Assembly (NCBI GenBank): GCA_938004065.1 | Contig: CALKWM010000039.1 | Location: forward strand, 1,313 to 65,312 | Source: an uncultured bacterium | GTDB taxonomy: Bacteria; Patescibacteriota; JAHJAL01 | Direction: 5' to 3' | DNA length: 64,000 nucleotides | Shown: piece after piece, positions 13,639-28,660 of the stretch | Position numbering within the stretch: position 1 is the first letter of the stretch | How the letters are laid out: each line of letters begins with the position of its first letter | Position numbers and translations under genes: made by a program | Notes under the pieces: model-generated | Database searches by the model: none | Told to the model about the DNA's origin: nothing | The model's input: the letters and a program-made list of their open reading frames with translations, nothing else

Positions 13639-13845
13639 TAAAATTATCAACTATCAATATCCAATTTACAATTTTAAAATTCCAAACATCCATTCGACCG
13701 GTCTAAAGAATCTCAAATATCAACCATTCAACCATTTAGTAATTTAGCCACTCTTATAATTCACAATATGTCAATATCACAATATTTTTTCTAACTTCGA
13801 AATTTGTTAACAACAATTCAACCATTTAACCATTTATTTACTATC

Positions 13846-14529
13846 ATGAACACAAACCAAAACCAAAAACAATTACTCGATGACATCCATGCCAATATCG
13901 CCGGTGATTACTATGACGACTCGATTGCCAACAATCCGATCAAAAAAGTATTTCATCACTATCGATTTAAAAACATCGGGGAGATGTTAAACAAAAGTTC
14001 CCAAAATCTGCTCGATATCGGCTGTGCCGGTGGTACTTTTACCAATGAATTGTCTAAACATACTGATGCGAAAATAACGGCGATTGATATCTCACCGCAA
14101 GCCATCGAATACGCCAGTCGGCAATACCCCCACATCGATTTTCAAGTTCATGACGCCGCCGAAGAGTATTTCCCTTTCCCGGACAATAGTTTTGAAACCG
14201 TTACCATGCTGGAAACTTTGGAACATGTTTTAAATCCGGTAGAAATTCTACAAGACATCAAACGAGTGGTCAAAGACGATGGCGAGGTAATTATCCTGGT
14301 ACCCTCCGAGAACTGGCATTTCAGGTTGGGATGGGAGATCTGGACCAGACTGCCGGGCAACATCGGCGGTGCGGCCTGGGATGAATCACATGTTCAACGA
14401 TTTGATGGGCACAAACTACGTCATCTGATGGAATTTATCGGTTACGAAATACTGGAGGAACGATGGTTTAACTTGGGACTACTGGTTGCTGTCAAAGCCC
14501 GCCCGAAATATCCGAATATTAATTATTAA
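13846..14529 (+). CDS. Class I SAM-dependent methyltransferase.
   Basis: LDIGCAGGTFTNEL is SAM-binding motif I. The acidic D at the end of beta-2 is in ITAIDIS. The ORF track begins at 13804 but the internal ATG at 13846 is the likelier start. Confidence 0.7.
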   Translation: MNTNQNQKQLLDDIHANIAGDYYDDSIANNPIKKVFHHYRFKNIGEMLNKSSQNLLDIGCAGGTFTNELSKHTDAKITAIDISPQAIEYASRQYPHIDFQVHDAAEEYFPFPDNSFETVTMLETLEHVLNPVEILQDIKRVVKDDGEVIILVPSENWHFRLGWEIWTRLPGNIGGAAWDESHVQRFDGHKLRHLMEFIGYEILEERWFNLGLLVAVKARPKYPNINY

Positions 14530-14560
14530 GCAATATGCAATATGCAATATGCAATATGCA
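14529..14560. repeat. Microsatellite (GCAATAT) x4.
   Basis: Four perfect tandem 7-mers immediately after the methyltransferase stop codon. Confidence 0.6.
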
Positions 14561-14605
14561 ACAACAATTACCAAGTTTCAATATCCAAGTATATTGCAAA
14601 ATACA

Positions 14606-14757
14606 AAATGTCATCCTTCAACCTGATCCGCCTTGGGTGGACAAGCGATTCAGGATCCCGTAACAAATTTTCAATGATTAATTATCAAAATAAATCAAAT
14701 AGATCCTGAATTGCTCGAATATTCGCTTCGCTCATTTCGGGTTCAGGATGACAAATT
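14606..14757. mobile_element. MITE-like element of the same core family, with TIR GTCATCCT../..AGGATGAC and internal GGATCC-containing GC hairpins.
   Basis: TGTCATCCTTCAACCTGATCCGCCTTGGGTGG..GGATCCCG and ..GGGTTCAGGATGACA form inverted ends. The core resembles the other copies. Confidence 0.45.
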
Positions 14758-14793
14758 TATTCTTCAATTTTATTTTTAATTCGTAATTATTAA

Positions 14794-17526
14794 TTGTATT
14801 CATCAATTATGAGAGCCAACTACCACAAAATTTTATTAATTTTCGATCTGGCGATAATCATCGCCTTGACGGTGTACTTGAGTTTCGCTACCGGCATGTG
14901 GCATGGCTATCCGATTGGAACGGATGCCTATGCTCACTTATCCAAAGTGAAATTTATGTACGAAAATTTTCCCAATTTTGAATGGTATTCCTATTGGGCA
15001 AACGGGATGCCGATGTTTTTGTGGTACAGTATCGTGCCATACCTCTTCATCTTGATTCTCAAATATTTGGGCTCCTCCTATGAACTTTCAATTCAATTGA
15101 TGTCAATCGCTAGTATTTTCGTAATGGTGTATTCCATCTATCGCATTGTATTATTTGGATCCAAAAATCGGATGGCGGGATTTTTGGCAGCCCTTGTCGC
15201 GCTCACCATGCCGGCCATCTGGGGACGTATGGCGATGGGGGAGATACCTCGTCTGATTGGTACCATGTTTTTGCCTCTGTCATGGCTAATGGTTATTTAT
15301 TATCTCAACACTCAAAAACCCGGACGCTGGTTAAAATTTGCTACCATCATCTCTTTGGCTTTGGCTTTCAGCGGTCACTTTATCATCACCGGTATCACTT
15401 TAGCCACCATTTTGGTAATATTTTATTTTCATGGCGGTATTAAAAAATCTTTGGAAAATATCACTCACTTAGTAATACCAGGAATGTTACTTTCATTTTT
15501 TACCGTTTTGCCATTTTTTATCTCCGCCGGTATCAAGCAGGTGTTTGGTGAAGGTTTGTTTGCCGGGGAAAGTTCTCACGCCCCCACCAATCTATGGAAA
15601 TTTGTTACCACTTTGTTTCCTCTAAACGACCGCATCGCCTGGATCGACAATGATTATGGTGCCAGTTTTCACTGGCTGGTCTTGCCGCTGGTGGCGATAT
15701 TTGTTTTTCTTGCCCTTCATCATCGTGAAAAGCACATCAACCAACAAACGGTTTTCTCCGAATGGCACATCTTGAAATCATTTTGCTATCTGAGTTTATT
15801 TATAACTCTGTTTGGCACTGCCATGTATTTTGGCTATCCTGGTAACCTGTATAACGCCTCGCTTCCTCCAACCGACGCCTTTTTCTATCTATCACTAACA
15901 CTGCCGGTCGTGATCGGTCTGGGTTTCCACTATGGTCTGGCCAGATTTCACAATCGCGCCATTGTCTTTGTCTTTAGTGTCATCTCTCTTGTTTTCGTTG
16001 CCGGAATACTCTATCCGCTCCCTGACTTCACGATCAAAGCCAATGATAACTATCGATATTTCAACAAGGAAAATACCGTCCAACAAGAATTTGCCGATAC
16101 TATCGGGGAAAATCCTGATCAAAATTATCGCTTCGCACACAACAACTCGTTTATCGCCGTTTGGTTTAACTATGATTTCAATATTCCGCAAATCCGTGAC
16201 TACTATTCTCAGGCCTTGCTAAACAACAATGAAAAATTTTGGTTTGAAAATGCTGTCTTTGCTCTCAATGATAACTATCAAGAAGTCAAATACTTGCTCG
16301 ACTGGTTTGGTGTCAAATGGCTATCGGTTTCTTATCCCAATTTCAATTTTGATAAATTCACCAACAATTCAGATCTGTTTACTCCCGTAGCATCCAACAA
16401 TAGTCCAATCAAAGAAGAACGCATTTCCACTTTCGAATATCGTAAGCCCAGCCCGATATTTGCCGCTACTGATGCCAAAACGATTCTCGTAATCGGTGAT
16501 GATGCCGCTTACAATAATCTGCTGATTTCCCTTTCCAAAACTGACCTGGGGTCCGATCAGATAATTCCGATCAAAGCTGAACAAAACGTTGAGTTCTATG
16601 ATTTGGCATACCTCCAAAGATTTGATGCGGTAATGCTCTACAACTTTACCTATCTGGAAAAAGAACATGCTTTTAACATGCTCGATCGGTATGTCTATCA
16701 AGGCGGGTCACTATTAATCGAATCATCCGGTGTCCTGTCCAAGCCCGACGGTGAAATTGCCTTCCTGCCATTTCCGGTTACCGAAATCAATCCGGGAGAT
16801 TTTGGCCGGGATTGGGATTTCAAAACTCAAGCCAATACTCTGAGCGAACCGGTTAACACTGCTGATTTCGGTCCGGCCATCTATGGTGGCGAATTACCTT
16901 GGAGTATGTTGTATGTTGAACCCGAAAACCTGCGTGATAACGCTTTCCCTATACTCTCAAATCACGGCAAAATCGTAGTCGCCGGTATGGACCATGGTGA
17001 CGGCCATGTTATCTGGAGCGGGTTAAACATGTTCTACCATTTCAATAACTATCCGCAAAACGGTGAACGTGATTTGATTACCAATATCATCAACAATATC
17101 ACCAAAAACGAAGCCAAACATCAGATAGTTAGCGGTGAACTGACCAATCCGCAATATCGTCAAATCAATATCGAAAAGTCATCATCATATACCGGCGTCT
17201 TACTCAAAGAAAATAATTTTGATTCCTGGAATGCGTACAATAACGGCCAAAAAACAGAAATCTACACCGCCGGACCCAATATGATGTATGTCTTGCTGGA
17301 TAAAAATTCCGACCAACCGCAACTGATCGAATTTACATATCGTCGGCTGTGGTTTGAATATCTCGCCTGGAGCATTTCTCTAATTTATTTCGTTTGGTTA
17401 ATATATGCCGTCTTTGTCCATCGCGATATGGTGGAAGAACTAAAACAAAAATCCAGAACCATTTCCAAAAAAAATAAATCCAACCAAAAACATAAAACCA
17501 AAGTGGTTAAACGCTCTAAAACTTAA
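14794..17526 (+). CDS. Large polytopic membrane protein, YfhO-like / GT-C-like (putative polyprenyl-phosphate-sugar-dependent glycosyltransferase).
   Basis: 910 aa. About 13 N-terminal TM helices, a ~450-aa extracytoplasmic domain, and a terminal TM plus a Lys-rich tail. It sits next to a CsbB/GtrB-like GT2, as in csbB-yfhO pairs. The family call is by architecture, not by motif. Confidence 0.45.
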   Translation: MYSSIMRANYHKILLIFDLAIIIALTVYLSFATGMWHGYPIGTDAYAHLSKVKFMYENFPNFEWYSYWANGMPMFLWYSIVPYLFILILKYLGSSYELSIQLMSIASIFVMVYSIYRIVLFGSKNRMAGFLAALVALTMPAIWGRMAMGEIPRLIGTMFLPLSWLMVIYYLNTQKPGRWLKFATIISLALAFSGHFIITGITLATILVIFYFHGGIKKSLENITHLVIPGMLLSFFTVLPFFISAGIKQVFGEGLFAGESSHAPTNLWKFVTTLFPLNDRIAWIDNDYGASFHWLVLPLVAIFVFLALHHREKHINQQTVFSEWHILKSFCYLSLFITLFGTAMYFGYPGNLYNASLPPTDAFFYLSLTLPVVIGLGFHYGLARFHNRAIVFVFSVISLVFVAGILYPLPDFTIKANDNYRYFNKENTVQQEFADTIGENPDQNYRFAHNNSFIAVWFNYDFNIPQIRDYYSQALLNNNEKFWFENAVFALNDNYQEVKYLLDWFGVKWLSVSYPNFNFDKFTNNSDLFTPVASNNSPIKEERISTFEYRKPSPIFAATDAKTILVIGDDAAYNNLLISLSKTDLGSDQIIPIKAEQNVEFYDLAYLQRFDAVMLYNFTYLEKEHAFNMLDRYVYQGGSLLIESSGVLSKPDGEIAFLPFPVTEINPGDFGRDWDFKTQANTLSEPVNTADFGPAIYGGELPWSMLYVEPENLRDNAFPILSNHGKIVVAGMDHGDGHVIWSGLNMFYHFNNYPQNGERDLITNIINNITKNEAKHQIVSGELTNPQYRQINIEKSSSYTGVLLKENNFDSWNAYNNGQKTEIYTAGPNMMYVLLDKNSDQPQLIEFTYRRLWFEYLAWSISLIYFVWLIYAVFVHRDMVEELKQKSRTISKKNKSNQKHKTKVVKRSKT

Positions 17527-17551
17527 AAAAATATAATAATTATTTAAAAAA

Positions 17552-18325
17552 ATGAAAAACAAAAAACGAAAAATTGTCATTATTCCAACCTACAACGAAA
17601 TCGAAAATATCCAAGATATTATCGAGGAGATATTTACCATTGTTCCCGATATTCACATCATGATCATCGACGATAACTCACCCGATGGTACCGCCGACAT
17701 CGTAACCAAACTTCAGGCCTTTTACAAAAACCTGCATTTGGTCAAACGTACCGGCAAACTTGGGCTGGGAACCGCCTACAAACTGGGATTTCGACTGGCA
17801 TTAAAAAACGGTTATGATTACATCATGGAAATGGATGCCGACTTTTCTCACGATCCGGCGGTTTTGGAAAATTTCTTTCTCAACATCGAAAACTATGATC
17901 TGGTCATCGGCTCTCGATACGTCGCCGGTGGACGGCTGGTCAACTGGCCATTTATGCGCTGGTTGCTTAGCTATGGAGCCAGTACCTACATCAGGTTGAT
18001 TACCAGTTTGCCGATCAAAGATACCACTGCCGGCTTCAAATGCTTTCGGCGCGAGGTTTTGGAATCGATCAACTTGACCCAAGTTTTATCCGAGGGCTAC
18101 TCCTTCCAAATCGAAATGCATTACAAAGCTTGGAAAAACGGCTGGAGCATCAAAGAAATCCCAATCACTTTTGTCGATCGTAGTTATGGCCAATCCAAAA
18201 TGAACTGGAAAATTATTGCCGAGGCCTTTTTGATACCATGGAAATTAAAACTGCAACCGGTCTATGAATACATTCGCCGTGAAAAAGTTAGATTCGATTT
18301 TGAAGATATTGATTTTGATAAATAA
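17552..18325 (+). CDS. GT2 polyprenyl-phosphate sugar transferase (Dpm1/GtrB/CsbB-like).
   Basis: IVIIPTYNEIENI and IIDDNSPDGTADIV are typical of dolichyl/undecaprenyl-phosphate GT2 enzymes. ADFSHDP supplies the DxD-like motif. Confidence 0.8.
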   Translation: MKNKKRKIVIIPTYNEIENIQDIIEEIFTIVPDIHIMIIDDNSPDGTADIVTKLQAFYKNLHLVKRTGKLGLGTAYKLGFRLALKNGYDYIMEMDADFSHDPAVLENFFLNIENYDLVIGSRYVAGGRLVNWPFMRWLLSYGASTYIRLITSLPIKDTTAGFKCFRREVLESINLTQVLSEGYSFQIEMHYKAWKNGWSIKEIPITFVDRSYGQSKMNWKIIAEAFLIPWKLKLQPVYEYIRREKVRFDFEDIDFDK

Positions 18326-18383
18326 AAAGTAAAGATTAACCCTCTTAAAACTTTTTTATCTCGTTTTTTATCGGGAGTTTTTT

Positions 18384-19511
18384 TCAATCAATTTCAATCA
18401 CCTGCCCATCTTTGATTTCTTTGACCGAGTACTGGATCCAAACCAAATCGCCGTTTTTATCGAAACGATAATCACCGATAATTCCGCTATAATTCTTTAA
18501 ATTATAGAAATAATTTTTTACCAAATCGGCGTCGTAACCTTCGCTTACCATCGCTTGTTTAAACAAATATACACCATCATAGGCCGCGCCCAGATAAAAT
18601 TCAAATGTTGGCTGGCCGTATTTGGCCGTGAAATTTGTGAGGAAATTGTCTGCCACCACATTATCCCGATCCAATGATGGATTATCGACAATTTTTATCC
18701 CTTCCGCATCTTTTCCGGCAATCTCTAAAGCAGTGGCGCCGGCCACCACATTGGTTCCAAATAGGGGAGTGTCCAGTTTAGCTTCAAAAATCTGCTTCAC
18801 GATTTTTCCTCCACTGGCTTCCGTTTGTGGATTTATCAATATTGCCTGCGGATTTTTGGCTTTGATTTCGCCGATATATGATTTGAAATCGCTGTCCATC
18901 GTGGAATACAGGCCATCATAAACCAGCTTACCGCCGGCTTTTTCATACTCCTCTTTGAAAACATTTCGCAAGTCGATAGCATAATCAGTACTTTCACTGA
19001 TCACGGCAACGGTTTTGTATTGTTTGGAAATTAGATTTGCCAATGCTTTTCCGATGTCGGCATCGGATGGTGTGTTACGAAATATAAAATCGCCGGCCAA
19101 GGTTACATCCGGACTGGATGAAGAAGGGGAGATGGCTACCGCCTGGGAGCTGTTTAACAACGGAGCTATCGCCAATGTTTCCCCACTGCAAACACCCCCG
19201 ATGATAAATTTTACTTTTTCCGTATCGATCAATTTTTGAGCCGCCATTTGTGCGCCGTTTTCCTCGCACAAACCATCTTCCGCGATCAATTTAATTTGTT
19301 TGCCCATGATCCCGCCGGATTGATTGATCTCATCAACCGCCAATTTCACCGCATTCAAAATCGGCTCGCCGTAACTTTTGGCATCACCGGACAATGGGCC
19401 GACAAACCCGATTTTCACCTCATCAACTTTATCCCATTCATTGATTGATACCACTTTACATCCGGTCGCAAACAACAGTAACGCCAATGCGATCGATAAA
19501 ATCTTCTTCAT
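18384..19511 (-). CDS. ABC transporter substrate-binding lipoprotein (LivJ/Peripla_BP_6-like, branched-chain amino acid type); orphan, with no permease adjacent.
   Basis: Lipobox LLFATGC. The type-I periplasmic-binding-protein segment GFVGPLSGDAKSYGEPILNAVKLAVDEINQSGGIMGKQIKL is present. Confidence 0.75.
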   Translation of the reverse strand: MKKILSIALALLLFATGCKVVSINEWDKVDEVKIGFVGPLSGDAKSYGEPILNAVKLAVDEINQSGGIMGKQIKLIAEDGLCEENGAQMAAQKLIDTEKVKFIIGGVCSGETLAIAPLLNSSQAVAISPSSSSPDVTLAGDFIFRNTPSDADIGKALANLISKQYKTVAVISESTDYAIDLRNVFKEEYEKAGGKLVYDGLYSTMDSDFKSYIGEIKAKNPQAILINPQTEASGGKIVKQIFEAKLDTPLFGTNVVAGATALEIAGKDAEGIKIVDNPSLDRDNVVADNFLTNFTAKYGQPTFEFYLGAAYDGVYLFKQAMVSEGYDADLVKNYFYNLKNYSGIIGDYRFDKNGDLVWIQYSVKEIKDGQVIEID

Positions 19512-19654
19512 TTTTATAATTTAATTAATGCTATGTATTTTCATCATATATAAACACCAACTAATTGTAAAAACATCTTGAAAAAACCTTAATTATATCC
19601 TATATTTAGATTTGTAATTTAAAAAAATATCATACAAAAAGAGGTGAAAAAAAA

Positions 19655-20158
19655 TTGTTTAAAAAAATTATCTCATTAATTTTTTCTTTTTTACTCTTAG
19701 TAAACGTAGCCAATGCCCAAGTAAAAAAATCTGTTTCAATCGCCATCATTGGAGCCGAGAATTCCGATCAAATGGTAATTTATTTGTCAGCTTTCGGCAA
19801 TGACTTACAGAGGATTAAATTATCCGCAGACAATACAATTGTTGTACCAAACAATAGAGAGATTTGGCTGTATGTGCCATATGACAAAGACAAATATGAC
19901 ACTTTATTAATTGATAATATTCCGGTCTATGAACGTACGGTCATTAGTCTCTCCCAAACACATAACGAGTATTGTTTTTGGGTGGTTTTAAATGAACAAC
20001 CACCGGGGATTCATAAGGTTGAATTTATATCCGGTGGGCAGAGTTTCTTTTTTTCTATTCAAGCAATGGAAAATTTTGAAACAAATATCGTGAAATATTG
20101 CGAGGAAGTCAAAAAAATTTACGAATTCCTCCCGAGAGGATATTTGATTGAAAACTAA
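19655..20158 (+). CDS. hypothetical secreted protein.
   Basis: Signal peptide MFKKIISLIFSFLLLVNVANA. No other motif recognised. Confidence 0.45.
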   Translation: MFKKIISLIFSFLLLVNVANAQVKKSVSIAIIGAENSDQMVIYLSAFGNDLQRIKLSADNTIVVPNNREIWLYVPYDKDKYDTLLIDNIPVYERTVISLSQTHNEYCFWVVLNEQPPGIHKVEFISGGQSFFFSIQAMENFETNIVKYCEEVKKIYEFLPRGYLIEN

Positions 20159-20198
20159 TTGCTCAACAAGTTAAGATTGCCAAAAATAATTAAAATAA

Positions 20199-20248
20199 TC
20201 GATCCCCGATCCGGAGCACCCTACGGGCTTCCGGTCGAGAATGACAGA
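20199..20248. repeat. MITE-core-only fragment (GATCCCCGATCCGGAGCACCCTACGGGCTTCCGGTCGAGAATGACAGA).
   Basis: It shares the GGATCCCCGAT and CGAGGATGACAGA-like ends of the MITE core but lacks the AT-rich TIR arms. Confidence 0.4.
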
Positions 20249-20254
20249 CAAAAT

Positions 20255-20293
20255 AATAATTTTTTTAAAAATCCCCCGATAACCTCGGGGGAT
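20255..20293 (-). terminator. Rho-independent terminator for tyrS (ATCCCCCGA-GGTTA-TCGGGGGAT, then a T-run on the minus strand).
   Basis: Perfect 9-bp GC stem 5 nt after the tyrS stop, followed on the minus strand by TTTTTAAAAAAATT. Confidence 0.6.
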
Positions 20294-20298
20294 TAATC

Positions 20299-21426
20299 TT
20301 ATCTACTAACTATACTGTTCAATTCCCGCAACAATTCTTTCTTTTCCGGTTTATCAAATTCATCTCGTATCGGTTTTAACAAATCTATCAAAAATTCCGC
20401 CACCGCATTTTTCAAATCCATTGGATGTAATTCTCCTTTGGCAAATGTTTTCTTTAGCTCTTCAATACTATTTAACTCCATATCACCGCCATGTTCCGGT
20501 TTTCTTTTGATGATCAATTTATCCTGATGTGTAAAAACCAAATTCTCCACCCAGTCGATAATCGGATTGAACTCCACTTCACCTTCCGGACAAAATGCTT
20601 TGGCAATTTTTTGGCGAATCTCTTCCTCGCTATCATGGACAAAAACAGCACTGTTTGGAACCGATTTGCTCATCTTCATGGTTGACCACAAATCTTGTTT
20701 ATTCATCTCGTCTGGTATCGGCCAAACTGACGGTTTTTGCAGTCCAAGCAACAATTTGTGATGTATTCCCACCGGCTTGACGATATTTTCGCCCAATTTC
20801 AAAGGATTTATTTTTAATTTCATTGCCACATCTCTCGCGATTACCTGGGCTTTTCTTTGATCATTGCCGGCATGTGGCAGATGAATCTGCATCGTGAAAA
20901 TATCGGAAACCTGCATCGCCGGGTACATTAATTTTGCAAAATCCACTGCATCACCTTCATTTCTACCCATAATTGTGATACTGCGTTTCATTCTGGCAAG
21001 TGTTGTGTTCTTGGATATTTCAACAACCGTTTCCCAAAATTGATTATTTTCCTTGTACAAATCAGAACCCAAAACGAATGTCAATTTTTTCGAGTTACCA
21101 CCCAACACTTCAAAACACAATTTCAAAGTGTGTGCGAAATAATCATGAGCAAACTTGGCGATTTTTTTTCTGTCCCCACCCAATTTATCATTGATCCAGC
21201 TGTGCCAGTCGGCCAGAAATACATGACAATTCACTCCCGCGTCCATGATGTCTTTGACTTTTTGCATACATACCAGACCTGTTCCCAGATGCACCATGCC
21301 GGAAATTTCAAAACCAATGTAGTGGTTGAGTGGCTGACCTGATTCTATCATCTTTTTCAAATCTTCTTCCGTCATAACTTCGGCTGTGTTTTGAGAAATC
21401 AATTTAATTTTTTTGTCATTAGTCAT
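20299..21426 (-). CDS. tyrS: Tyrosyl-tRNA synthetase, archaeal/eukaryal type.
   Basis: Class I synthetase with KMSKS. The C-terminal GELHPMDLKNAVAEFLIDLLKPIRDEF, and the preceding EEIRQKIAKAFCPEGEVEFNPII, closely resemble my recollection of Methanocaldococcus jannaschii TyrRS, which is not a bacterial TyrS/TyrZ. Confidence 0.85.
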   Translation of the reverse strand: MTNDKKIKLISQNTAEVMTEEDLKKMIESGQPLNHYIGFEISGMVHLGTGLVCMQKVKDIMDAGVNCHVFLADWHSWINDKLGGDRKKIAKFAHDYFAHTLKLCFEVLGGNSKKLTFVLGSDLYKENNQFWETVVEISKNTTLARMKRSITIMGRNEGDAVDFAKLMYPAMQVSDIFTMQIHLPHAGNDQRKAQVIARDVAMKLKINPLKLGENIVKPVGIHHKLLLGLQKPSVWPIPDEMNKQDLWSTMKMSKSVPNSAVFVHDSEEEIRQKIAKAFCPEGEVEFNPIIDWVENLVFTHQDKLIIKRKPEHGGDMELNSIEELKKTFAKGELHPMDLKNAVAEFLIDLLKPIRDEFDKPEKKELLRELNSIVSR

Positions 21427-21488
21427 AATTTTTTCTTATTACTTATTTCTTATTTCTTAATTCTTGTTCGCGCCTTCGGCGCGAAAAA

Positions 21489-21560
21489 TCCGGCGGGTAG
21501 GAATCGAACCTACCTTTCTGGTTTTACAGACCAGCGCATAAACCTCTCTGCCACCGCCGG
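21489..21560 (-). tRNA. tRNA-Tyr (anticodon GTA), class I structure with a 4-nt variable loop, C1:G72, discriminator A73, and no encoded CCA.
   Basis: Cloverleaf folded by hand. Acceptor CCGGCGG/CCGCCGG. D-stem GCAG/ATGC. Anticodon stem CTGGT/ACCAG with loop CTGTAAA (U33, anticodon GTA, A37). Variable loop AAAG. T-stem GTAGG/CCTAC with loop TTCGATT. It lies 57 nt upstream of tyrS on the same strand. Confidence 0.8.
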
Positions 21561-22285
21561 AAAACATTTCAAGTTCTAATTTCTAATTTTTAAGTTTTAA
21601 AGTTACAAATAACATACAAAATATTGACTGTGATAATTTTTTTTCTTGCTTCTTTTGTCATGTGTCTTGATTCTTGTTAAATGCAATTTAATATATAAAA
21701 AAACTCATCTTCGAATACAAACTTTTTTACAAAAATTTGTATCCAAGGACGAGTTTTCTCGCGGTACCACCTTGGTTTATTGATCTATTGCTAAATCAAT
21801 CTCAGTAAGTGTCAAACAACACTTTAGTATATGATAACGGTTACTTTCCGTCAGGCCTTACTTGTGATTTCTGACCTGCCACATCGAAATGGGTGTAATT
21901 TGTTTAGTCCCAAATCTAAATATCGTGTTTAATAATAAATTGTTAAAAACTCTATTCGCATATTACAAACCGATTATAGCAAATATGTATTCATTTGTCA
22001 AGAACGTATTCAGAGCATAAATTTTGTCATAATATCATCCACAAAAGATATTTTTAAAAAACATTAGTGTATAAATTTATCAATTAGATAAATCCAGCAA
22101 GTCTTCTCAAATACATTTTTTTAGAAGCAATATTTTTGTTAAAATAATAAAGATGACAATTTTTCCATTTGGAAAAAATAATAATATGGGAAAAAAAATT
22201 ATAAATAAAAGCGACTTTTGAGGAGTGATTTTTTTATCCTCATTTTTTTAATTTTTTACTAGCCGGTAAGTTAATTTGTAAAAAA

Positions 22286-22684
22286 ATGAAAACATTGGAA
22301 ACTGCCAAAAAATTTGAATCTGAAAAATGGCAAGAAATTATTAATCAAAAAGAGATTGAACAGGACATAAGACTGGATATCAAAAACCAAAATGATAAAG
22401 AATTGCTTAGAATGGCCAAAGCCATCATTATCCAACTGGAAAACAAAAATTTTGGCGAAGAGATTATGGCAGAAATAAATACTCTACTGCAAAGCTATGC
22501 CAAAGCAGATCATATCGACAAACAGCATATTTGCCGAACGATAATAAATCGGGTAGCCAAATATTTGGAAATTGACACCAAGATGGAGTACAGCGGTTAT
22601 GAAACACGGCTAAATATGCCAAAAAAATCGATCCGTCAGACGAAAATAGTTCAAATGGCTCAGGCGATACCGAATTCACTCTGA
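22286..22684 (+). CDS. hypothetical protein.
   Basis: 132-aa ORF upstream of the kinase in a different frame. No motif recognised. Confidence 0.4.
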   Translation: MKTLETAKKFESEKWQEIINQKEIEQDIRLDIKNQNDKELLRMAKAIIIQLENKNFGEEIMAEINTLLQSYAKADHIDKQHICRTIINRVAKYLEIDTKMEYSGYETRLNMPKKSIRQTKIVQMAQAIPNSL

Positions 22685-22701
22685 TTTTTGATAAATCAAA
22701 T

Positions 22702-23514
22702 GTGGAGGAATTAGAGAAAGAAATTGAAATTGATCGAAAATCAGGCAAATTAACTATGGTGAATTATAATATGGTTATGGAAAAAGAAAAGGTCGATAAA
22801 TTAGTCACAATGCAAAACTCTATCCAAAATTATCGTGAATACAACCATGAATTAAAAAATTGTTATTCAGCCGGATTATTGGCCATTGAATGTGCATATA
22901 ATAGTTTAAGTACGCAGATTGGTGAAGAAAAAATGGCTATTGAGAAAAAAATATTTGATGAAAAAATCGGTTACGCCAAAAAACTACTTTGTTTGGGACC
23001 GGAAAAATTTGCTATGTTAGGAGAGTCAAAATCCGTGGTCGATTGTGGAGAAATAGTTGATTCACAAGTGGATTTATTCCGCGATTATCTGCAAGGAGAA
23101 AATATCAGTATTAAAATTATCAAAGATAACAAATTTTATTTAAGAAATGCTTCACCACATAAATTGCGAGTAGTGATAAGTAATCTCATCAAAAACGCCG
23201 AAGAAGCTTTCGCCGGAATCGAAAAACCGGACAAAAAAATCCTCCTTTTATTTGATTATCACAATGGTTATAACTGTTTAAAAATTGTTGATAATGGCAA
23301 AGGTATGTCAGAAAACGAGAAAGAGAAAATTTTCCTAAAAAACTATTCATCCAAAGGTGATGGTCGAGGTATCGGCATGTCGATAGTCAAAAAATATATC
23401 GAAGAACTCGGGGGTAAGTTAGAGGTACAAAGCGCCAAAGAAAAATACACCGAAATGTGCTTGAAATTCCCCGAAAGTATTTGTATCAGCAAAAATTGTC
23501 AACGAAAAGATTGA
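22702..23514 (+). CDS. Small cytoplasmic sensor histidine kinase (HisKA-like H-box plus HATPase_c).
   Basis: H-box YNHELKNCYSAGLL. The N-box is in NLIKNAEEAF, and the G1/G2 boxes are DNGKGMS and GDGRGIGMSIVKKY. Confidence 0.65.
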   Translation: MEELEKEIEIDRKSGKLTMVNYNMVMEKEKVDKLVTMQNSIQNYREYNHELKNCYSAGLLAIECAYNSLSTQIGEEKMAIEKKIFDEKIGYAKKLLCLGPEKFAMLGESKSVVDCGEIVDSQVDLFRDYLQGENISIKIIKDNKFYLRNASPHKLRVVISNLIKNAEEAFAGIEKPDKKILLLFDYHNGYNCLKIVDNGKGMSENEKEKIFLKNYSSKGDGRGIGMSIVKKYIEELGGKLEVQSAKEKYTEMCLKFPESICISKNCQRKD

Positions 23515-23679
23515 TATTATGGCGATACAATGGCTTCACATTTTTATGATTTGTTTTAAAATGATATGACATGATTCTAGTCATAGTCACTATTTATTTC
23601 AGCGGTTTCTTGTGCTACTCTATAAGTAAAGATAACAAAAATAAAACTTTTTCCCTTGCATTTTTTAGGAAAAGTTTTC

Positions 23680-24924
23680 ATGAAAAATTTATATAAAACC
23701 ATAATTACTCTGATCATCATCCCGGTAATTTTTTTATTGTCCCCAGCCAAAATCCTGGCATACAAAGATTTACCGATCTCCGATTCGGCAACAACTAAAT
23801 ACATCTATCGTTTTTGGAGCCCTGTTTTCAAGGGTCATTTTTTCACCATGGACCATGCCGAAGCCAATCGAGTGGCCAACGAGGACAGTAACTGGAATTT
23901 TGAACAGATTGCCTACAGCGCCTATGCCATGCAATCTGAAGCAACCTTGCCCGTTTATCGTTTTTGGAGTCCGGTATTTCATGGACATTTTTATACCATC
24001 AATCCGGAAGAATGGATGCGAGTCAAAGACACCGATTCCAACTGGAATTACGAATGGATCGCCTATTATGCATATCCACCAACCTATACCGGTGAAGCCA
24101 AAAATGTTTATCGTTTTTGGAGTCCCGTTTTTCTCCATCACTTTTTTACTATCGACGAAGAGGAGATGAAGCGTGTCCGTGATACCGATCCCAATTGGGA
24201 CTACGAGGGAATCGCCTTCAAAGTCCCGCCGGGTGACACCAATCAGACAATCACCGGTGATGAGAAAAAGCTGATTGAAAGCGAAACCGCCGCTATCCAA
24301 GTCGATGAAATTAGCGATGTAACCAGTCAATACCCGGCTCAGGCCAAAACTGGAGAAAAACTTATCGCTACCAAAGTTTATCTACTTAATACCGGTCAGG
24401 ATCCAATTGATTATAGTCTGTATGATTTTATTTTAAAAAATCCGGAAAATGGCCAAACCTACCAACCTCAACCCATCGCCGAACCGGTTTTGGTTGGCGG
24501 TAAACTTTCACCCGGGGAAAGTGTTGAAGGTAATCTCACGTTTTCCATCCCGACCGATTTAAACAATCCCGTTCTGCAATACTCGAGCGACAACATGGAG
24601 ATAAAAAACAATCGAATCGAAGTCAATCTGGATATCACCCCCAGCGTCGTCATCATTTCCAGCGGTGTCATAACGGACCAATTTTCTTCCCAAAAAATCG
24701 TCGGTACGGTCAAAAACAATACCAAAACTCCGGTTAGACACGTCAAAATAACCGCCAGTTATTTTGATGAATCTATGGAACAAATCGGCGAAAATTTTAG
24801 TTATGCCGAAAAAGCCAGTATCGATTTTCTCCAACCCGGCGATACCGCCGATTTCAAAATCTGGTACTCGAGCAACCCATCTGTCAAGTACTATGAATTA
24901 ACTCTAAACTGGCAGACAAACTAG
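23680..24924 (+). CDS. Secreted protein with three tandem ~50-aa repeats (YRFWSPVF.GHF.T...SNWN.E.IAY) and a C-terminal Ig-like/DUF4352-like region.
   Basis: Signal peptide. Three repeats visible by eye. The repeat resembles the YRFYNxxTGxHFYT...GWxYEGIAFY repeat family (DUF5648-like); that family assignment is from memory. The start was chosen at the internal Met MKNLYKT. Confidence 0.55.
   Translation: MKNLYKTIITLIIIPVIFLLSPAKILAYKDLPISDSATTKYIYRFWSPVFKGHFFTMDHAEANRVANEDSNWNFEQIAYSAYAMQSEATLPVYRFWSPVFHGHFYTINPEEWMRVKDTDSNWNYEWIAYYAYPPTYTGEAKNVYRFWSPVFLHHFFTIDEEEMKRVRDTDPNWDYEGIAFKVPPGDTNQTITGDEKKLIESETAAIQVDEISDVTSQYPAQAKTGEKLIATKVYLLNTGQDPIDYSLYDFILKNPENGQTYQPQPIAEPVLVGGKLSPGESVEGNLTFSIPTDLNNPVLQYSSDNMEIKNNRIEVNLDITPSVVIISSGVITDQFSSQKIVGTVKNNTKTPVRHVKITASYFDESMEQIGENFSYAEKASIDFLQPGDTADFKIWYSSNPSVKYYELTLNWQTN
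23797..24250 (+). repeat. Coding tandem repeat, 3 units of ~147-153 bp.
   Basis: TATCGTTTTTGGAG(C/T)CC recurs at 23806, 23953 and 24106. Confidence 0.7.
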
Positions 24925-24948
24925 ATTAATTTAATGATATATCAAAAA

Positions 24949-24977
24949 CAGCCGTATTATTCACGGCTGTTTAATAT
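24949..24977. terminator. Bidirectional terminator hairpin (AACAGCCGT-ATTATTC-ACGGCTGTT) between convergent genes.
   Basis: Perfect 9-bp stem with A/T runs on both sides. Confidence 0.55.
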
Positions 24978-25000
24978 AGAATCAAAGAAAAAAATACCAA

Positions 25001-26578
25001 TTATTTACTAAACAATTGATCGATCACCAACTGTCCATTATCTTCCTGGGCGTGTAAACTTAACTTTGTTGCCAATATTGCCACCTCTCTTTCGTATCGG
25101 GACAGTTCGGCAAATTCTTGTGAATTGACCAAACTTGTACTTTTTTTTACCACATCTTGTTTAACATTTCCCAAGGTAATTTCAATCAGATCTAAAAATT
25201 CACCTCTGCTGATAGTTAAATCAATTGTTCTTTCTTGCGGGGGCTTTATGATTTTTGACTCCATGCTTTTTCCCGCTTGTAATGAATTAATATTTTCCTG
25301 TTTTCCCGTTTTCTGAATTTTTTCCGCGTGTTCTTTCAATGCTTCAACCATCTGCCATTTTTTGAGAAAATCAATTATCTGCGGACAATAACTGGCAAAA
25401 ATATCCTGTTTTTGCACTGATTGCGCTAACTTCTGGAGATCATCCAAACGAAAATATCTTTTAATTTTTTCTAAAACGCTCACGCCGGCAGTCTGTTTGA
25501 GTTGTGCTTCAGATTTATTCATCTCTCGTAAATCAATGCTCACATTGATCTTGCTTGATTTTTCTTCGGAATTATTTTCAATTTGTCTTTTGATTAACTG
25601 ATTTTTGCGCTGGAATTTTTCTATTTCCCCAATTTGTATCTCGTTCAAAGCCAATTGATATTCAACTTTTTTCACTTTGTTCAATTGGTGAAAATAGAAA
25701 AAATACTTTGCTTGTAACAACAGTTCACTCTCAATCTTGTCTTGCCAAGCATTCTTGACTCGTTCCAAATATGGTAAATGTTTAAATTTTGACAGTAACT
25801 CATCCGGCAGTAAATCCGGTTTTTCATCAGCCAAATTTTCCACCAAAATATTTATTTGCGCACTTTTTTTAGTTTTGATGGCATCAACCAGTGTTTTGGT
25901 CATTAGTTGGCCGGTGGCTTTTTCTCCAATAGTATCGGTTAAATCGCGGATGTCTTTGTCAATAAACAATTCTTGTGTAAGTAAATCGATCTTGCCGATA
26001 TTTTCAAATGGATTGCTGTTTTGGTCCAAGTTATTTAACCGAGCATCAAAAGTATTGATATATTTTTTGTACCGGTTAATGATTTCGTCCAAATCATTTT
26101 TGATGTATTCGTTATATTTTTCTTTGTAAAACACATCGGAAAATCCCTTAAAGCAATCCAGCTTCATCTGCATTTCAGCAATATACTGGGCGGTAGCTTG
26201 ATTGCCGGCAATTTTATGTTGTAAGAAACCGATATATTCATTTCTTTTCTGTTCAATCTCTTGATCGATGATTTTTATCAAATCCTCATCCGTCTTTGAT
26301 GTGGACAATCTTTCAATCTCCTGAGTTAAAAACTCATTTTGATTTTCGACATAAGTCAATTTACTTTGCAATAAATCTATTTGAAAATTCGTAAAATCAT
26401 CAAAAACATCGGGGTATTTGATAACCTTTTTATCGCCATTACTGCCAACGGATTCAATCTTTGGTGTTAGTAGCAGTTTTGAGATAATCAACCCCTTGTT
26501 AAAATCTGCCGATTCGATATGATTGGACCCATCTTTTCTTTGATAGTCGTTCGGTTCTTGTCCCGGAGCGTTTTTCAT
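25001..26578 (-). CDS. hypothetical coiled-coil protein.
   Basis: 525 aa, rich in E/K/Q/L with heptad-like stretches. No catalytic motif. Confidence 0.5.
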   Translation of the reverse strand: MKNAPGQEPNDYQRKDGSNHIESADFNKGLIISKLLLTPKIESVGSNGDKKVIKYPDVFDDFTNFQIDLLQSKLTYVENQNEFLTQEIERLSTSKTDEDLIKIIDQEIEQKRNEYIGFLQHKIAGNQATAQYIAEMQMKLDCFKGFSDVFYKEKYNEYIKNDLDEIINRYKKYINTFDARLNNLDQNSNPFENIGKIDLLTQELFIDKDIRDLTDTIGEKATGQLMTKTLVDAIKTKKSAQINILVENLADEKPDLLPDELLSKFKHLPYLERVKNAWQDKIESELLLQAKYFFYFHQLNKVKKVEYQLALNEIQIGEIEKFQRKNQLIKRQIENNSEEKSSKINVSIDLREMNKSEAQLKQTAGVSVLEKIKRYFRLDDLQKLAQSVQKQDIFASYCPQIIDFLKKWQMVEALKEHAEKIQKTGKQENINSLQAGKSMESKIIKPPQERTIDLTISRGEFLDLIEITLGNVKQDVVKKSTSLVNSQEFAELSRYEREVAILATKLSLHAQEDNGQLVIDQLFSK

Positions 26579-26740
26579 AAATATTCATTAATTTAAACTT
26601 TTTAAAATATAACAATAATTTATCATATTGGCAATGATTAAATTAATCATAATACACTACCACAGCTTGCCTTTGGATTTAAAATTTGTTAAGTTATGAA
26701 TTGGAAGGCAAAATAATTATTCATATCATTATAGACAAAC

Positions 26741-27328
26741 ATGAAAACAAATCTTGATTCAATCAAGGATTATTCATTTGACCGGCAAGTATTGGCCAGT
26801 CAAAACAGTATGGATTTCCTGGCCAAAATGAAAGAGAAATACACATCCGGCAATACCGATAAAAAGGTTTCCATGGACAATGTTGCTGTCGTACCCAACA
26901 ACAGCTTTATTGATTACCGAAAAGATGTTTTTGAAAGACGGGCTAAACACGATTGGCTCAAGCGATTGGAAAACAAATACACTGCCAAAAACACCGATAC
27001 CGGTTTATCCGGCAATCATTTGGAAAAAGCCAAGGCGGGGAGTTTTTTTGAAAACAATGCCCCATCTTCCGCTCCCCAAAATTCATCCGGAAATTTATCC
27101 AAATGGCAACGCATACAAGCCATAAAAAACTATATCAAATTTTGTTCCGCCACCGAACCGACGCCCGCCATCGCTTCCACTTCTGACTCGACCGATGCAC
27201 AATCATGCACTTCTCCGGTAATACCAGATTGTGTCAATCAACCGTCGCTAGGAAACCGTTTATGGACCGGAGTGAAAGATGTTGTATCCGGAGTAAAAAA
27301 TTTCTTTACCGGAATTTTCAAGCGATAA
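26741..27328 (+). CDS. hypothetical protein.
   Basis: 195-aa ORF. No motif recognised. Confidence 0.4.
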   Translation: MKTNLDSIKDYSFDRQVLASQNSMDFLAKMKEKYTSGNTDKKVSMDNVAVVPNNSFIDYRKDVFERRAKHDWLKRLENKYTAKNTDTGLSGNHLEKAKAGSFFENNAPSSAPQNSSGNLSKWQRIQAIKNYIKFCSATEPTPAIASTSDSTDAQSCTSPVIPDCVNQPSLGNRLWTGVKDVVSGVKNFFTGIFKR

Positions 27329-27348
27329 ACAACATTTTTTTTTAAATA

Positions 27349-27391
27349 AAAACAAAAGCCACCTTAAAATATTCTAAGGTGGCTTTTGTTT
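27349..27391. terminator. Bidirectional terminator (AAAGCCACCTTA..TAAGGTGGCTTT).
   Basis: 12-bp perfect stem between convergent ORFs, flanked by A and T runs. Confidence 0.6.
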
Positions 27392-27420
27392 AAAATTGTC
27401 TTGTTTTTAAATAGAACTAT

Positions 27421-28413: not shown

Positions 28414-28492
28414 AAAATTAGCAAAAAGTCAATAGTTTTTTAAATTAATATAACCCATTTAACACTTACGCGTCTAATTAAAAAGAGATAAG

Positions 28493-28660
28493 TTAAATAA
28501 TGAGTAGTGCTAATTTATTTTCTTATCTGTCATCCTCGAATCGATCCGCCTTGCCTGCCCGCCTTGGGTGGGGGCGGAGCTTCGATAACTTGTCCGCCTC
28601 GGGTGGATCGGGGATCCATACCATATTTCTTATTATTATTTAGCACCACTCATTAAATAA
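28493..28660 (+). mobile_element. Complete MITE (~168 bp): 20-bp TIRs TTAAATAATGAGTAGTGCTAA / TTAGCACCACTCATTAAATAA flanking the GC-rich hairpin core CTGTCATCCTCGAATCGA..CCGCC..GGCGG..CGGGGATCC.
   Basis: The TIRs match with one mismatch. The internal palindromes are perfect. Related copies occur at 6066, 14606, 36564, 55066, 56180 and 63623. Confidence 0.7.

Follow-up and report, generated by a model that had tools for sequence, protein, structure and literature searches.

The archaeal/eukaryal-type tyrosyl-tRNA synthetase (TyrRS) gene and the tRNA-Tyr gene described here probably belong to one transcription unit of a bacterium of the Patescibacteria (CPR), in which a promoter, a tyrosine T-box leader, a remodelled bacterial tRNA-Tyr gene and an archaeal-type tyrS follow one another. 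We propose more tentatively that this T-box closes a self-referential loop, gating both the gene of its own ligand, tRNA-Tyr, and the archaeal-type synthetase that inactivates this ligand, and that the version in the window (the whole 64-kb stretch of DNA that was analysed) is a natural transcriptional T-box without the Stem I elbow platform. All features of the unit lie on the (-) strand. The T-box and promoter upstream of the tRNA gene were absent from the first reading of this DNA, and their presence changes the nature of the locus.

The tyrS gene (20299..21426), identified as an open reading frame and by profile matches, encodes a TyrRS of 375 aa. Pfam tRNA-synt_1b (PF00579; E 4e-38) covers residues 31-350 and is the only domain, the S4-like C-terminal domain that binds the variable arm (V-arm) in bacterial TyrRS being missing. 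The protein scored 422.2 bits with the NCBIfam tyrosine--tRNA ligase equivalog NF006330 (PRK08560), for which the cut-off is 220; scores with the tyrS model TIGR00234 (103.4 bits) and the trpS model TIGR00233 (105.1 bits) were under the respective cut-offs of 113.8 and 176.75. The closest solved structures were three TyrRS chains, namely 2cyc (E 2e-128), 7fg6 and 2cya, of which 2cyc and 2cya are archaeal enzymes, and the bacterial TyrRS structure 1h3e was matched with an E-value of 3e-5 only. The original prediction of an archaeal/eukaryal-type and not a bacterial enzyme was borne out by these results, and its statement that the C-terminus is very close to that of Methanocaldococcus jannaschii (Mj) TyrRS held in part. 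The C-terminal motif ELHPMDLKNAVAE is common to both proteins, but overall identity is 37%, and among solved structures the window TyrRS is closest to 2cyc, a long form of 375 aa with which it aligns end to end.

Amongst the catalytic motifs, HLGT starts at residue 46 and KMSKS occupies residues 251-255. The Tyr-binding residues Y36, Y168, Q172, D175 and Q190 align with Mj Y32, Y151, Q155, D158 and Q173. Additionally, R148, R191, K192, H334 and D337 align with R132, R174, K175, H283 and D286 of MjTyrRS, and R148, R191, K192 and D337 are invariant in an alignment of 28 TyrRS sequences. Mj Asp286 presumably reads G34. Arg132, Arg174 and Lys175 of the Mj enzyme take part in reading C1:G72 (PMC1934993), and by alignment these putative C1:G72-reading residues are kept in the window TyrRS. 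A terminator lies 3' of tyrS (20262..20294), with the hairpin AAUCCCCCGA-GGUU-AUCGGGGGAUU followed by UUUU; the scan found this hairpin on the + strand, and its - strand reading was taken from the sequence.

Upstream of tyrS, ARAGORN reported a single tRNA in the whole 64 kb, tRNA-Tyr(GTA) at 21488..21561 (-), and the Rfam tRNA model placed it at 21560..21489 (-) with 64.3 bits (E 1e-11); the gene is given here as 21489..21560. The tRNA reads CCGGCGG UG GCAG AGAGGUUU AUGC G CUGGU CUGUAAA ACCAG AAAG GUAGG UUCGAUU CCUAC CCGCCGG A, and has C1:G72, C2:G71, A73, a variable loop of 4 nt and no encoded CCA. Both programs agree with the class I tRNA with anticodon GUA, C1:G72 and A73 that had been read from the sequence at first, and the tRNA scan proposed at that time returned no class II tRNA-Tyr in the 64 kb. 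C1:G72, A73, GUA and the absence of a long variable arm together make up the archaeal/eukaryal tRNA-Tyr identity set, as defined in PMC5370408 and PMC1934993, and the window tRNA has them all. A GC hairpin, CGCGCC-GAAG-GCGCG (21469..21483, read from the sequence and folded), starts 5 nt past the 3' end of the tRNA and is not present in relatives. It was considered as a terminator and rejected because no U-run stands behind it; a role as 5' stabiliser of the tyrS mRNA once the tRNA is excised is only a guess.

The promoter scan identified a sigma-70-type promoter at 21973..22001 with TTGACA, a 17-nt spacer and TATAAT (12/12 matches), plus a TG ahead of the -10. It precedes a T-box leader (21742..21932) comprising a short Stem I, Stem II, IIA, Stem III and an antiterminator, which was located with Rfam RF00230 and with our own covariance model. 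RF00230 is matched over the full model (1-219) with 67 bits (E 9e-14 to 2e-14), under its gathering score of 93, and our own model gave 123 bits. The leaders of five relatives are also full-length matches under the gathering score of 93 (67.8-87.9 bits); across the six distinct leaders the RF00230 E-values run from 1e-13 to 1e-18, and the leader always lies between promoter and tRNA. In 5/5 relatives, a -35-like hexamer, a spacer of 16-17 nt and a TGn-extended -10, as read from the sequences, stand right before the leader. Alignment of the six leaders showed that 91.8% of cells pair (slid controls, 31-48%), that both partners have changed in 13 pairs, and that 100% of cells pair in the antiterminator helices, compensatory changes included.

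A motif common to the six leaders gave the position of the specifier codon, UAC (Tyr; 21895..21897), which is followed by A and then a CCC helix. The surrounding GAA(A/U)UAC(U/A)CC is kept in 6/6 leaders at the 3' end of the specifier loop, and UAC is complementary to the anticodon GUA, the genes downstream being tRNA-Tyr and tyrS. The nucleotide 3' of the specifier is A in the window, and U instead of the usual purine in 4/6 leaders. The T-box core GGUGGUACCGCG (21760..21771, with UGGU at 21769..21766) was the sole match in the 64 kb at up to one mismatch (0.02 expected), its pattern occurred across 174 loci at T-box sites only, and UGGUACC is present in 6/6 leaders. The UGGU bulge would base-pair with the 3'-terminal ACCA of uncharged tRNA-Tyr, matching A73-C-C-A and thus also the discriminator base. 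Downstream, RNAfold showed an intrinsic terminator (21697..21754; U7 at 21703..21697) of -31 kcal/mol, and the 5' strand of its long hairpin, CUCGUCCUUGG, is also the antiterminator strand, which makes the two helices mutually exclusive. Folding of the whole leader gave z = -6.1. Terminator hairpins of -18 to -31 kcal/mol across the leaders, followed by U6-7, are present in all relatives. From these sequence features we infer a tyrosine-specific T-box in the window, which by homology would act through tRNA-dependent antitermination.

The order T-box, tRNA-Tyr, tyrS recurs in five further distinct loci. In these relatives, only 5-14 nt separate the terminator U-run from the tRNA, and 13-21 nt separate the tRNA from the ATG; such gaps leave separate promoters no room and thus argue for a single transcript. 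Amongst bacterial loci with this TyrRS type, 32 others have a co-oriented tRNA-Tyr gene directly upstream, and this tRNA has C1:G72 and A73 in every case; the pairing of the two genes is thus more than a coincidence. The tRNA-tyrS arrangement is therefore shared by related genomes, a point raised in the original prediction, and the self-consistent synthetase/tRNA pair described there stands as a matched and, in our reading, co-transcribed one. Further T-boxes were sought in 174 loci (~1 Mb) with the core motif and our own covariance model, and by Rfam on 25 bacterial loci, and these searches brought up no T-box lineage besides the three found before; Rfam scans of Chloroflexota, Dormibacterota and Planctomycetales loci found no T-box. 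Grouping of the T-box lineages as one clade was tried in a bootstrapped NJ TyrRS tree, and a single origin is not claimed because the three together obtained 1% support.

In the window, 62 nt separate the tRNA 3' end from the tyrS ATG, both on the (-) strand, and comparison with relatives revealed an A+T-rich spacer of 136 nt (21561..21696) between terminator and tRNA in the window lineage only. This spacer holds a weak promoter-like site, ATGACA-17-AATTAT (21661..21633; 9/12 matches), so that the tRNA and tyrS of the window may escape the switch in part or altogether. Carried further, the window T-box could be a decaying relic whose leader only terminates, with tRNA and tyrS driven by a promoter in the spacer. 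The distal Stem I is indeed lost, RF00230 positions 12-101 being replaced by 39 nt, and with it the elbow-binding platform, a region that is matched in L004 and L086 (full-length Stem I) and that, according to a review (PMC7583486), transcriptional T-boxes require, its loss being tolerated mainly by translational T-boxes of actinobacteria. However, a relic should show damage, and here a perfect 12/12 extended promoter stands before an intact set of elements, namely UAC-A, the full-consensus core, Stems II, IIA and III, and the antiterminator with its overlapping terminator. Natural T-boxes with a short Stem I work via Stem II contacts (PMC7583486), and the 9/12 site in the spacer lies in DNA rich in such matches, with 19 found in this stretch versus 8.5 expected. 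Altogether, we consider a relic T-box unlikely.

Under the preferred reading of one unit running from the promoter through the T-box and tRNA-Tyr to tyrS, the TyrRS would descend from an archaeal (DPANN-like) enzyme and, having no V-arm-binding S4-like domain, would read C1:G72, A73 and the anticodon, a charging specificity expected by homology. The resident bacterial tRNA-Tyr would have been adapted to this enzyme by a flip of its first two acceptor pairs to C1:G72 and C2:G71, and its variable arm, now useless, would have been deleted in the sub-lineage of the window. The T-box would read the anticodon through the specifier UAC and the free 3'-ACCA through the UGGU bulge, and could still sense the remodelled tRNA because it reads neither the 1:72 pair nor the variable arm. 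As expected from known T-boxes, a build-up of uncharged tRNA-Tyr would stabilise the antiterminator, allowing RNA polymerase to pass the terminator and go on to transcribe the tRNA gene and tyrS. RNase P and 3' processing would then free the tRNA, again by homology, with CCA addition also needed for the window tRNA, and its excision would remove the leader from the tyrS mRNA. Fresh TyrRS would recharge the tRNA pool and turn the switch off. A T-box that gates tRNA-Tyr and tyrS in this manner would govern the gene of its own ligand plus the ligand-inactivating enzyme. The direct observations behind this scheme are sequence features, conservation, covariation and gene order.

To assess the descent of the tRNA, sequences were compared without the variable region. 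The window tRNA then shows 82-97% identity with 15 further CPR class I tRNA-Tyr sequences (from 16 further loci, L173 being a duplicate of L172) and 70-80% identity with most CPR class II (V-arm) C1:G72 tRNA-Tyr. Values were 68% with M. jannaschii tRNA-Tyr, mostly via an identical acceptor stem, and 57% with the archaeal-looking L073 tRNA, in a comparison whose archaeal side is very small (one archaeal tRNA-Tyr). Within this very small archaeal sample, the window tRNA is not closer to archaeal than to bacterial tRNA-Tyr genes. Its U8-G9 and D-arm (GCAGAG.GGUUUAUGC) fit the class II type (e.g., L085, GCAGAGCGGUCAAUUGC) and not the archaeal GUUCAGCCUGGUAGAAC, and its T-arm also resembles that of CPR class II C1:G72 tRNA-Tyr. 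Additionally, the C1:G72 tRNA of L071 matches E. coli tRNA-Tyr, the sequence of which was verified, in D-arm and T-arm. A bacterial descent also fits the tRNA-Thr / tRNA-Tyr / tRNA-Thr / tRNA-Trp cluster that houses the tRNA in many CPR loci. The window tRNA is probably of bacterial origin, a tRNA-Tyr whose top pairs were flipped and whose V-arm was deleted, and its import from archaea is unlikely. Of the two histories first suggested for the pair, co-evolved is the better word, and co-acquired is disfavoured because the tRNA is closer to CPR class I and most CPR class II tRNA-Tyr and has a D-arm of class II type.

A joint transfer of the tRNA gene and tyrS from a DPANN archaeon is, for similar reasons, hard to credit. 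It would explain why the relatives of the TyrRS at 58-61% identity are DPANN archaea, why the tRNA is class I as in archaeal tRNA-Tyr, and why the acceptor stem CCGGCGG/CCGCCGG-A is the same as in M. jannaschii tRNA-Tyr. However, 0/55 archaeal-labelled loci have a tRNA-Tyr inside 3 kb of the TyrRS gene, so that the presumed donors show no module of this kind, and both the identity values and the class II type of U8-G9 and D-arm, set against one archaeal tRNA-Tyr, point to a bacterial source.

Equally improbable is that the pair forms an auxiliary, conditional second system, with housekeeping left to a tyrS of canonical bacterial type and a G1:C72 tRNA-Tyr of class II elsewhere in the genome. 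An extra archaeal-type synthetase under T-box control has a precedent in the class I LysRS of Bacillus cereus (PMC2916919). In many CPR loci, tRNA-Tyr is found within a tRNA-Thr / tRNA-Tyr / tRNA-Thr / tRNA-Trp cluster, and the window pair stands outside it. Nonetheless, sister CPR lineages have the C1:G72 tRNA in this very housekeeping cluster, and C1-G72 pairs are treated as the Tyr identity of these organisms by Mukai et al. (PMC5370408). In so reduced a genome, a second Tyr system that shares the anticodon but does not cross-react with the first would be redundant, and no second TyrRS/TrpRS (class Ic) was found in the 64 kb when a profile of 28 TyrRS was run against all six-frame ORFs.

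The bacterial host context was confirmed by the TypA of the window, which is 72-83% identical to Patescibacteria proteins, its best matches, and by the position of the locus mid-way in a 120-kb contig with bacterial neighbours. Two further sequencing runs independently yielded the same locus sequence, and its G+C, like that of the flanks, gave no compositional hint of a recent transfer. Bins of CPR and DPANN, which occur together, do cross-contaminate (PMC5370408), but given these observations, and the bacterial promoter, T-box and intrinsic terminators around the gene, the chance that an archaeal fragment was mis-assembled or mis-binned into a bacterial contig is negligible.

An archaeal-type Tyr pair in CPR is a textbook-breaking, already published exception to domain-specific tRNA identity. 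The text of Mukai, Reynolds, Crnkovic and Soll 2017 (Life 7:8, PMC5370408) describes archaea/eukarya-type TyrRS in Parcubacteria, Microgenomates, WS6 and WWE3 with C1-G72 tRNA-Tyr, in which the V-arm is kept in many and missing in some, and deduces a DPANN-related origin of the enzyme and bacterial descent of the V-arm-bearing tRNAs. A tRNA-synthetase operon is described in that text for tRNA-Trp/TrpRS-A, and it does not describe tRNA-Tyr/tyrS adjacency, the Thr-Tyr-Thr-Trp cluster position or a T-box. The new element appears to be the placement of both genes behind a bacterial T-box that senses the same tRNA. Searches of the open-access literature, which are weak evidence, found no report of T-boxes in CPR/Patescibacteria/Parcubacteria or of a T-box upstream of a tRNA gene or controlling the gene of its own ligand, and nothing relevant on archaeal TyrRS in Chloroflexota.

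The locus suggests a route for an identity swap in which a tRNA already present in the bacterium was changed, by a flip of its top pairs and loss of its V-arm, and none was imported, and in which the bacterial regulatory RNA may have survived or been recruited because the T-box reads unchanged parts of the tRNA. A riboswitch over the gene of its own ligand would be a design not described for T-boxes, with positive feedback via the tRNA and negative feedback via the synthetase. If this is the sole tRNA-Tyr gene of the genome, the supply of an essential tRNA would depend on the same tRNA being there already. The window leader could serve as a natural test case for a transcriptional T-box without the Stem I platform, and about 1.7 kb would provide compact parts for synthetic biology, namely a promoter, a T-box, a tRNA and an orthogonal-type TyrRS.

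The transcriptional T-box riboswitch of Bacillus subtilis tyrS was reportedly described by Grundy and Henkin in 1993. The window leader resembles this T-box (RF00230) in its UAC specifier, its UGGN bulge pairing with NCCA, its mutually exclusive terminator and antiterminator and the tyrS downstream, and L004 and L086 resemble it in their full-length Stem I as well. It differs in its archaeal-type enzyme, in its Patescibacterium host, in sensing a class I tRNA with C1:G72 and in having the gene of this tRNA between leader and ORF. With the 'ultrashort' Stem I T-boxes of actinobacterial ileS (Sherwood, Grundy and Henkin 2015, as summarised in PMC7583486), it shares a truncated Stem I with no platform, a retained Stem II/IIA and a specifier in an apparent terminal loop. 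The actinobacterial T-boxes, however, are translational and sequester the SD, whereas the window has the transcriptional platform of a terminator with U7. B. cereus lysK (PMC2916919) is alike in placing a bacterial T-box over a synthetase type otherwise typical of archaea, but there the LysRS is a second, auxiliary enzyme, the unit has no tRNA gene and the tRNA identity set is unchanged. Finally, the engineered E. coli of Iraha et al. 2010 (PMC2887954), in which an archaeal TyrRS-tRNA-Tyr pair replaces the native one, shows that a bacterium can live on such a pair; unlike the window pair, that one was put in place by engineering, has a tRNA of truly archaeal origin and is under no riboswitch control.

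The original prediction had claimed an archaeal-type rather than bacterial TyrRS, and beside it a class I tRNA with anticodon GUA, a 4-nt variable loop, C1:G72 and A73; both descriptions held. The 375-aa ORF of tyrS (21426..20299, minus strand) encodes a W/Y synthetase of class I, as shown by its match to Pfam PF00579 (E 4e-38), that clears the NCBIfam equivalog model for tyrosine--tRNA ligase, NF006330, with 422 bits against a cut-off of 220, and that stays under the cut-offs of the other tyrS model, TIGR00234, and of the trpS models. Its best solved relatives were the TyrRS chains 2cyc, 7fg6 and 2cya, of which 2cyc and 2cya are the Pyrococcus horikoshii and Aeropyrum pernix enzymes. The alignment with 2cyc (375 aa) runs end to end (E 2e-128), whereas the bacterial Thermus chain 1h3e was matched only at E 3e-5. 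The C-terminus does share ELHPMDLKNAVAE with M. jannaschii (Mj) TyrRS, in line with the closeness proposed, but that enzyme is not the closest relative (1j1u, E 1.5e-49, 37% identity).

A scan of the window by ARAGORN returned a single tRNA with a short variable loop, tRNA-Tyr(GTA) at 21560..21489 (minus strand; Rfam tRNA 64.3 bits), which is also the sole tRNA gene found by Rfam in the 64 kb; one Rfam family scored above its gathering score across 1..64000. Split by the Rfam structure line it reads CCGGCGG-UG-GCAG-AGAGGUUU-AUGC-G-CUGGU-CUGUAAA-ACCAG-AAAG-GUAGG-UUCGAUU-CCUAC-CCGCCGG-A, with C1:G72, C2:G71, discriminator A73 and no encoded CCA, and tyrS follows on the same strand after 62 nt. 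His283 and Asp286 of MjTyrRS, which read G34 of the anticodon, align with H334 and D337 of the window enzyme, and the S4-like domain, the bacterial binder of the long variable arm (V-arm), is absent. In MjTyrRS, C1 is read by Arg174 (and by Arg132 via water) and G72 by Lys175 (Tsunoda et al. 2007, PMC1934993). These correspond in a global alignment to R191, R148 and K192; the tyrosine-pocket residues are conserved, and R148, R191, K192 and D337 are invariant amongst 28 aligned relatives. From its sequence, the window TyrRS can thus be expected to recognise the archaeal set of identity elements.

The host belongs to the bacterial group Patescibacteria (CPR), and the bacterial surroundings noted at first reading were borne out: the window TypA/BipA is 72-83% identical to proteins of the Patescibacteria group, Buchananbacteria, Falkowbacteria and Paceibacterota, and the neighbors of tyrS are of bacterial type (glycosyltransferase, ABC substrate-binding protein, histidine kinase, LD-carboxypeptidase and PIF1-like helicase). 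The G+C content of tyrS (0.39) is similar to that of its flanks, and the 64-kb window contains no further gene for a class Ic synthetase. Assembly GCA_036848155.1 encodes an identical TyrRS protein on its 120-kb contig DAIUKQ010000004.1, as do contigs obtained independently from two other sequencing runs. Many window ORFs lacked a family match, such as 14794-17526 (910 aa, membrane-like), 25001-26578 and 27421-28413. On the plus strand, 43290-44888 is one ORF with an uncommon fusion of a RadC-like JAB domain to a D12-class N6-adenine DNA methyltransferase, and 23656-24924 encodes a secreted-looking protein with three tandem repeats 'YRFWSPVF.GHF.T...E...V' (DUF5648) plus DUF4352 and an FxLYD domain.

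Three elements that precede the tRNA on its own strand had been overlooked: a promoter, a T-box leader and a terminator. The promoter is a perfect extended TTGACA-17-TGnTATAAT (22001..21973, minus, by promoter scan); divergent from it, 22286-23514 (plus) carries a 132-aa ORF without family match and then a short histidine kinase (270 aa, HATPase_c only) with no obvious sensor domain and no adjoining response regulator. The leader (21932..21742, minus) matched the Rfam T-box model over its full length; the score of 67 bits (E about 1e-13) falls short of the gathering score, 93. It has the sequence hallmarks of a T-box. The specifier UAC, followed by A, lies at the 3' end of the Stem I loop (21897..21895, minus), Stem II carries GAAA...AGUA motifs, and Stems IIA and III are present. 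The T-box core GGUGGUACCGCG (21771..21760, minus) has one match in the whole window, where 0.02 would be expected by chance, and the UGGU within it complements the A73-C-C-A end of the tRNA. The 3' strand of the antiterminator, CUCGUCCUUGG, doubles as the 5' strand of the terminator, a long hairpin plus U7 ending at 21697 (minus).

The order of promoter, T-box, class I C1:G72 tRNA-Tyr and tyrS recurs in five further distinct sequences amongst the fetched TyrRS-bearing loci (L numbers). L004, from a genome labelled 'Ca. Peribacteria' (TyrRS 65% identical to the window's), scored 71.4 bits for the Rfam T-box, and L169/L170 of the same group (91.5% to L004) 67.8 bits, or 50 bits for L170 with its 5' end cut. 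The metagenome contig L086 (61% to the window) scored 87.9 bits, and L171 (84% to L086) and L172/L173 (83.5% to L086) of its group 84.5 and 83.5 bits. GAA(A/U)UAC(U/A)CC and UGGUACC are present in every T-box relative, as is a terminator (-18 to -21 kcal/mol) with U6-7 behind it. Across four helices (23 pairs) of the six leaders, 91.8% of cells were paired versus 31-48% with partners slid, and 13 pairs had changed on both sides. In the relatives the U-run ends 5-14 nt 5' of the tRNA, and 13-21 nt separate the tRNA's CCA from the ATG; since these gaps leave no space for separate promoters, leader, tRNA and tyrS must, as judged from this layout, form a single transcript. No T-box was found in the remaining fetched loci by core motif, a purpose-built covariance model or Rfam (run on 25 bacterial loci), and the neighbor-joining (NJ) tree does not settle whether the T-box lineages form a single group.

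The window copy departs from its relatives in that L004 and L086 retain the distal, elbow-binding Stem I platform that it lacks; in its truncated Stem I, 39 nt take the place of 90 in the model. According to a review (Zhang, PMC7583486), transcriptional T-boxes require this platform, and a short Stem I typifies the translational T-boxes of actinobacteria. Together with a 136-nt spacer between U7 and the tRNA (minus) containing a weak promoter-like site (21661..21633, minus, by promoter scan), this would fit a relic; we consider this reading rather unlikely. The window leader may either use a short-Stem-I mode leaning on Stem II or reflect relaxed control in this genome. A GC hairpin follows the tRNA (21483..21469, minus).

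For a functional T-box, the working proposed here is modelled on homologous transcriptional T-boxes that have been characterised. Uncharged tRNA-Tyr would pair through its anticodon with UAC and through its free ACCA end with UGGU, stabilising the antiterminator and allowing read-through, while charged tRNA could not do so and the terminator would form. Read-through would yield both tRNA-Tyr itself and the tyrS message. The tRNA would be cut out by RNase P at its 5' end and by processing at its 3' end, with CCA added in the case of the window, and this excision would separate the leader from the tyrS mRNA. The resulting loop would feed back positively by supplying more ligand and negatively by supplying more TyrRS, which charges the ligand. 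Since the tRNA features read by a T-box do not include the 1:72 pair or the V-arm, a bacterial riboswitch could serve a tRNA with archaeal synthetase identity.

Related genomes were found to share the tRNA-tyrS arrangement. The 174 loci fetched came from species-representative genomes, metagenomes and exact-protein look-ups; homologues at 58-65% identity were from CPR bacteria mixed with DPANN or Asgard archaea. In 32 bacterial loci besides the window's own organism, tyrS is immediately preceded on its strand by a tRNA-Tyr(GTA), which is of class II (83-87 nt, V-arm) in 16 of them and of class I (73-76 nt) in the other 16, and all 32 tRNAs begin CC and end GG-A (C1:G72, C2:G71, A73). No tRNA-Tyr was found within 3 kb of tyrS in the 55 archaeal-labelled loci. 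In one of these relatives, L033 (Nanoarchaeota), two separate ORFs matched the TyrRS query, which may reflect a tandem duplication or a single gene that is split or frameshifted. In many CPR loci (L005-L008, L049, L052, L085, L087-L089, L099, L101, L164-L168) the pair sits inside a conserved cluster tRNA-Thr(TGT), tRNA-Tyr, tyrS, tRNA-Thr(GGT), tRNA-Trp, or a variant order, and a Portnoybacteria-like group has rpsB, tsf, an ORF, tRNA-Thr, tRNA-Tyr, tyrS. The resemblance of this cluster to the bacterial thrU-tyrU-glyT-thrT suggests that tyrS was inserted beside a resident tRNA-Tyr. A bootstrapped NJ tree gave one main CPR TyrRS clade with moderate support (76% with L026).

The origin of the window tRNA was approached through identities computed with the variable region removed and the window tRNA as reference. 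These were 82-97% to other CPR class I tRNAs (15 sequences; L173 duplicates L172), 70-80% to most of the 16 CPR class II C1:G72 tRNAs, 68% to M. jannaschii tRNA-Tyr (the common part is mostly the identical acceptor stem) and 57% to the tRNA of L073, which has an archaeal-looking D-arm and an enzyme that branches with archaea. The likeness in U8-G9, in the D-arm (GCAGAG.GGUUUA-UGC versus GCAGAGCGGUCAAUUGC in class II L085) and in the T-arm (GUAGGUUCGAUUCCUAC versus GUAGGUUCGAAUCCUAC in L049 and L088) ties the window tRNA to the class II bacterial type, and the class II C1:G72 tRNA of L071 shares its D-arm and T-arm sequences with E. coli tRNA-Tyr (E. coli sequence verified). From this kinship, and with one archaeal tRNA-Tyr compared, we read the window tRNA as a remodelled bacterial tRNA-Tyr, its top pairs flipped and its V-arm deleted, which apparently co-evolved with the enzyme; of the two histories first offered, co-acquisition is disfavored, as the tRNA is nearer to most CPR class II tRNAs than to the Mj or L073 tRNAs.

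Some loci stood apart. The class I tRNA-Tyr of L007 belongs to the same family as the window's, yet the TyrRS of L007 lies beside that of L006 within the class II group (74% bootstrap with L007), which suggests a second V-arm loss or a tRNA gene exchange between lineages. L073, with its tRNA-Tyr (690-762; D-arm GUUCAAUGGUAGAAC) and a TyrRS amongst archaeal sequences in NJ trees, may represent an independent transfer, perhaps one in which the tRNA was imported too. L079 (65-140) is labelled Gammaproteobacteria, but as a 2-kb contig with CPR-type content it is probably mis-binned. Additionally, the same archaeal-type TyrRS (53-59% identity) was seen in Chloroflexota/Dehalococcoidia-, Dormibacterota- and Planctomycetales-labelled genomes (L014, L022, L024, L031, L034, L042, L047, L050, L051, L059, L065, L066; match ~3001-4120 in each), the Chloroflexota/Dehalococcoidia-labelled carriers including complete 4.2-4.4 Mb chromosomes (OZ244848.1, OZ243944.1, OZ250185.1). 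Five sampled loci (L024, L034, L042, L059, L066) formed their own clade in the NJ tree (100% bootstrap). These non-CPR loci had no adjoining tRNA-Tyr, and the five scanned with Rfam had no T-box.

The archaeal-type Tyr pair in CPR is already known, and the window pair is a further example: archaea/eukarya-type TyrRS with C1-G72 tRNA-Tyr was described in Parcubacteria, Microgenomates, WS6 and WWE3, where many of the tRNAs retain the V-arm, hence a bacterial origin, and V-arm-less forms exist (Mukai, Reynolds, Crnkovic, Soll, Life 2017, PMC5370408). Amongst bacteria, that study placed the archaeal-type TyrRS in CPR only (PMC5370408), and no paper on it in Chloroflexota-type genomes was found in the searchable literature. 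Nor did that literature yield a paper on a T-box riboswitch in CPR, Patescibacteria or Parcubacteria, or on a T-box upstream of a tRNA gene. The tyrS gene of B. subtilis has a T-box. This leader and the T-box that controls the archaeal-type class I LysRS of B. cereus (PMC2916919) are the nearest precedents of the window locus.
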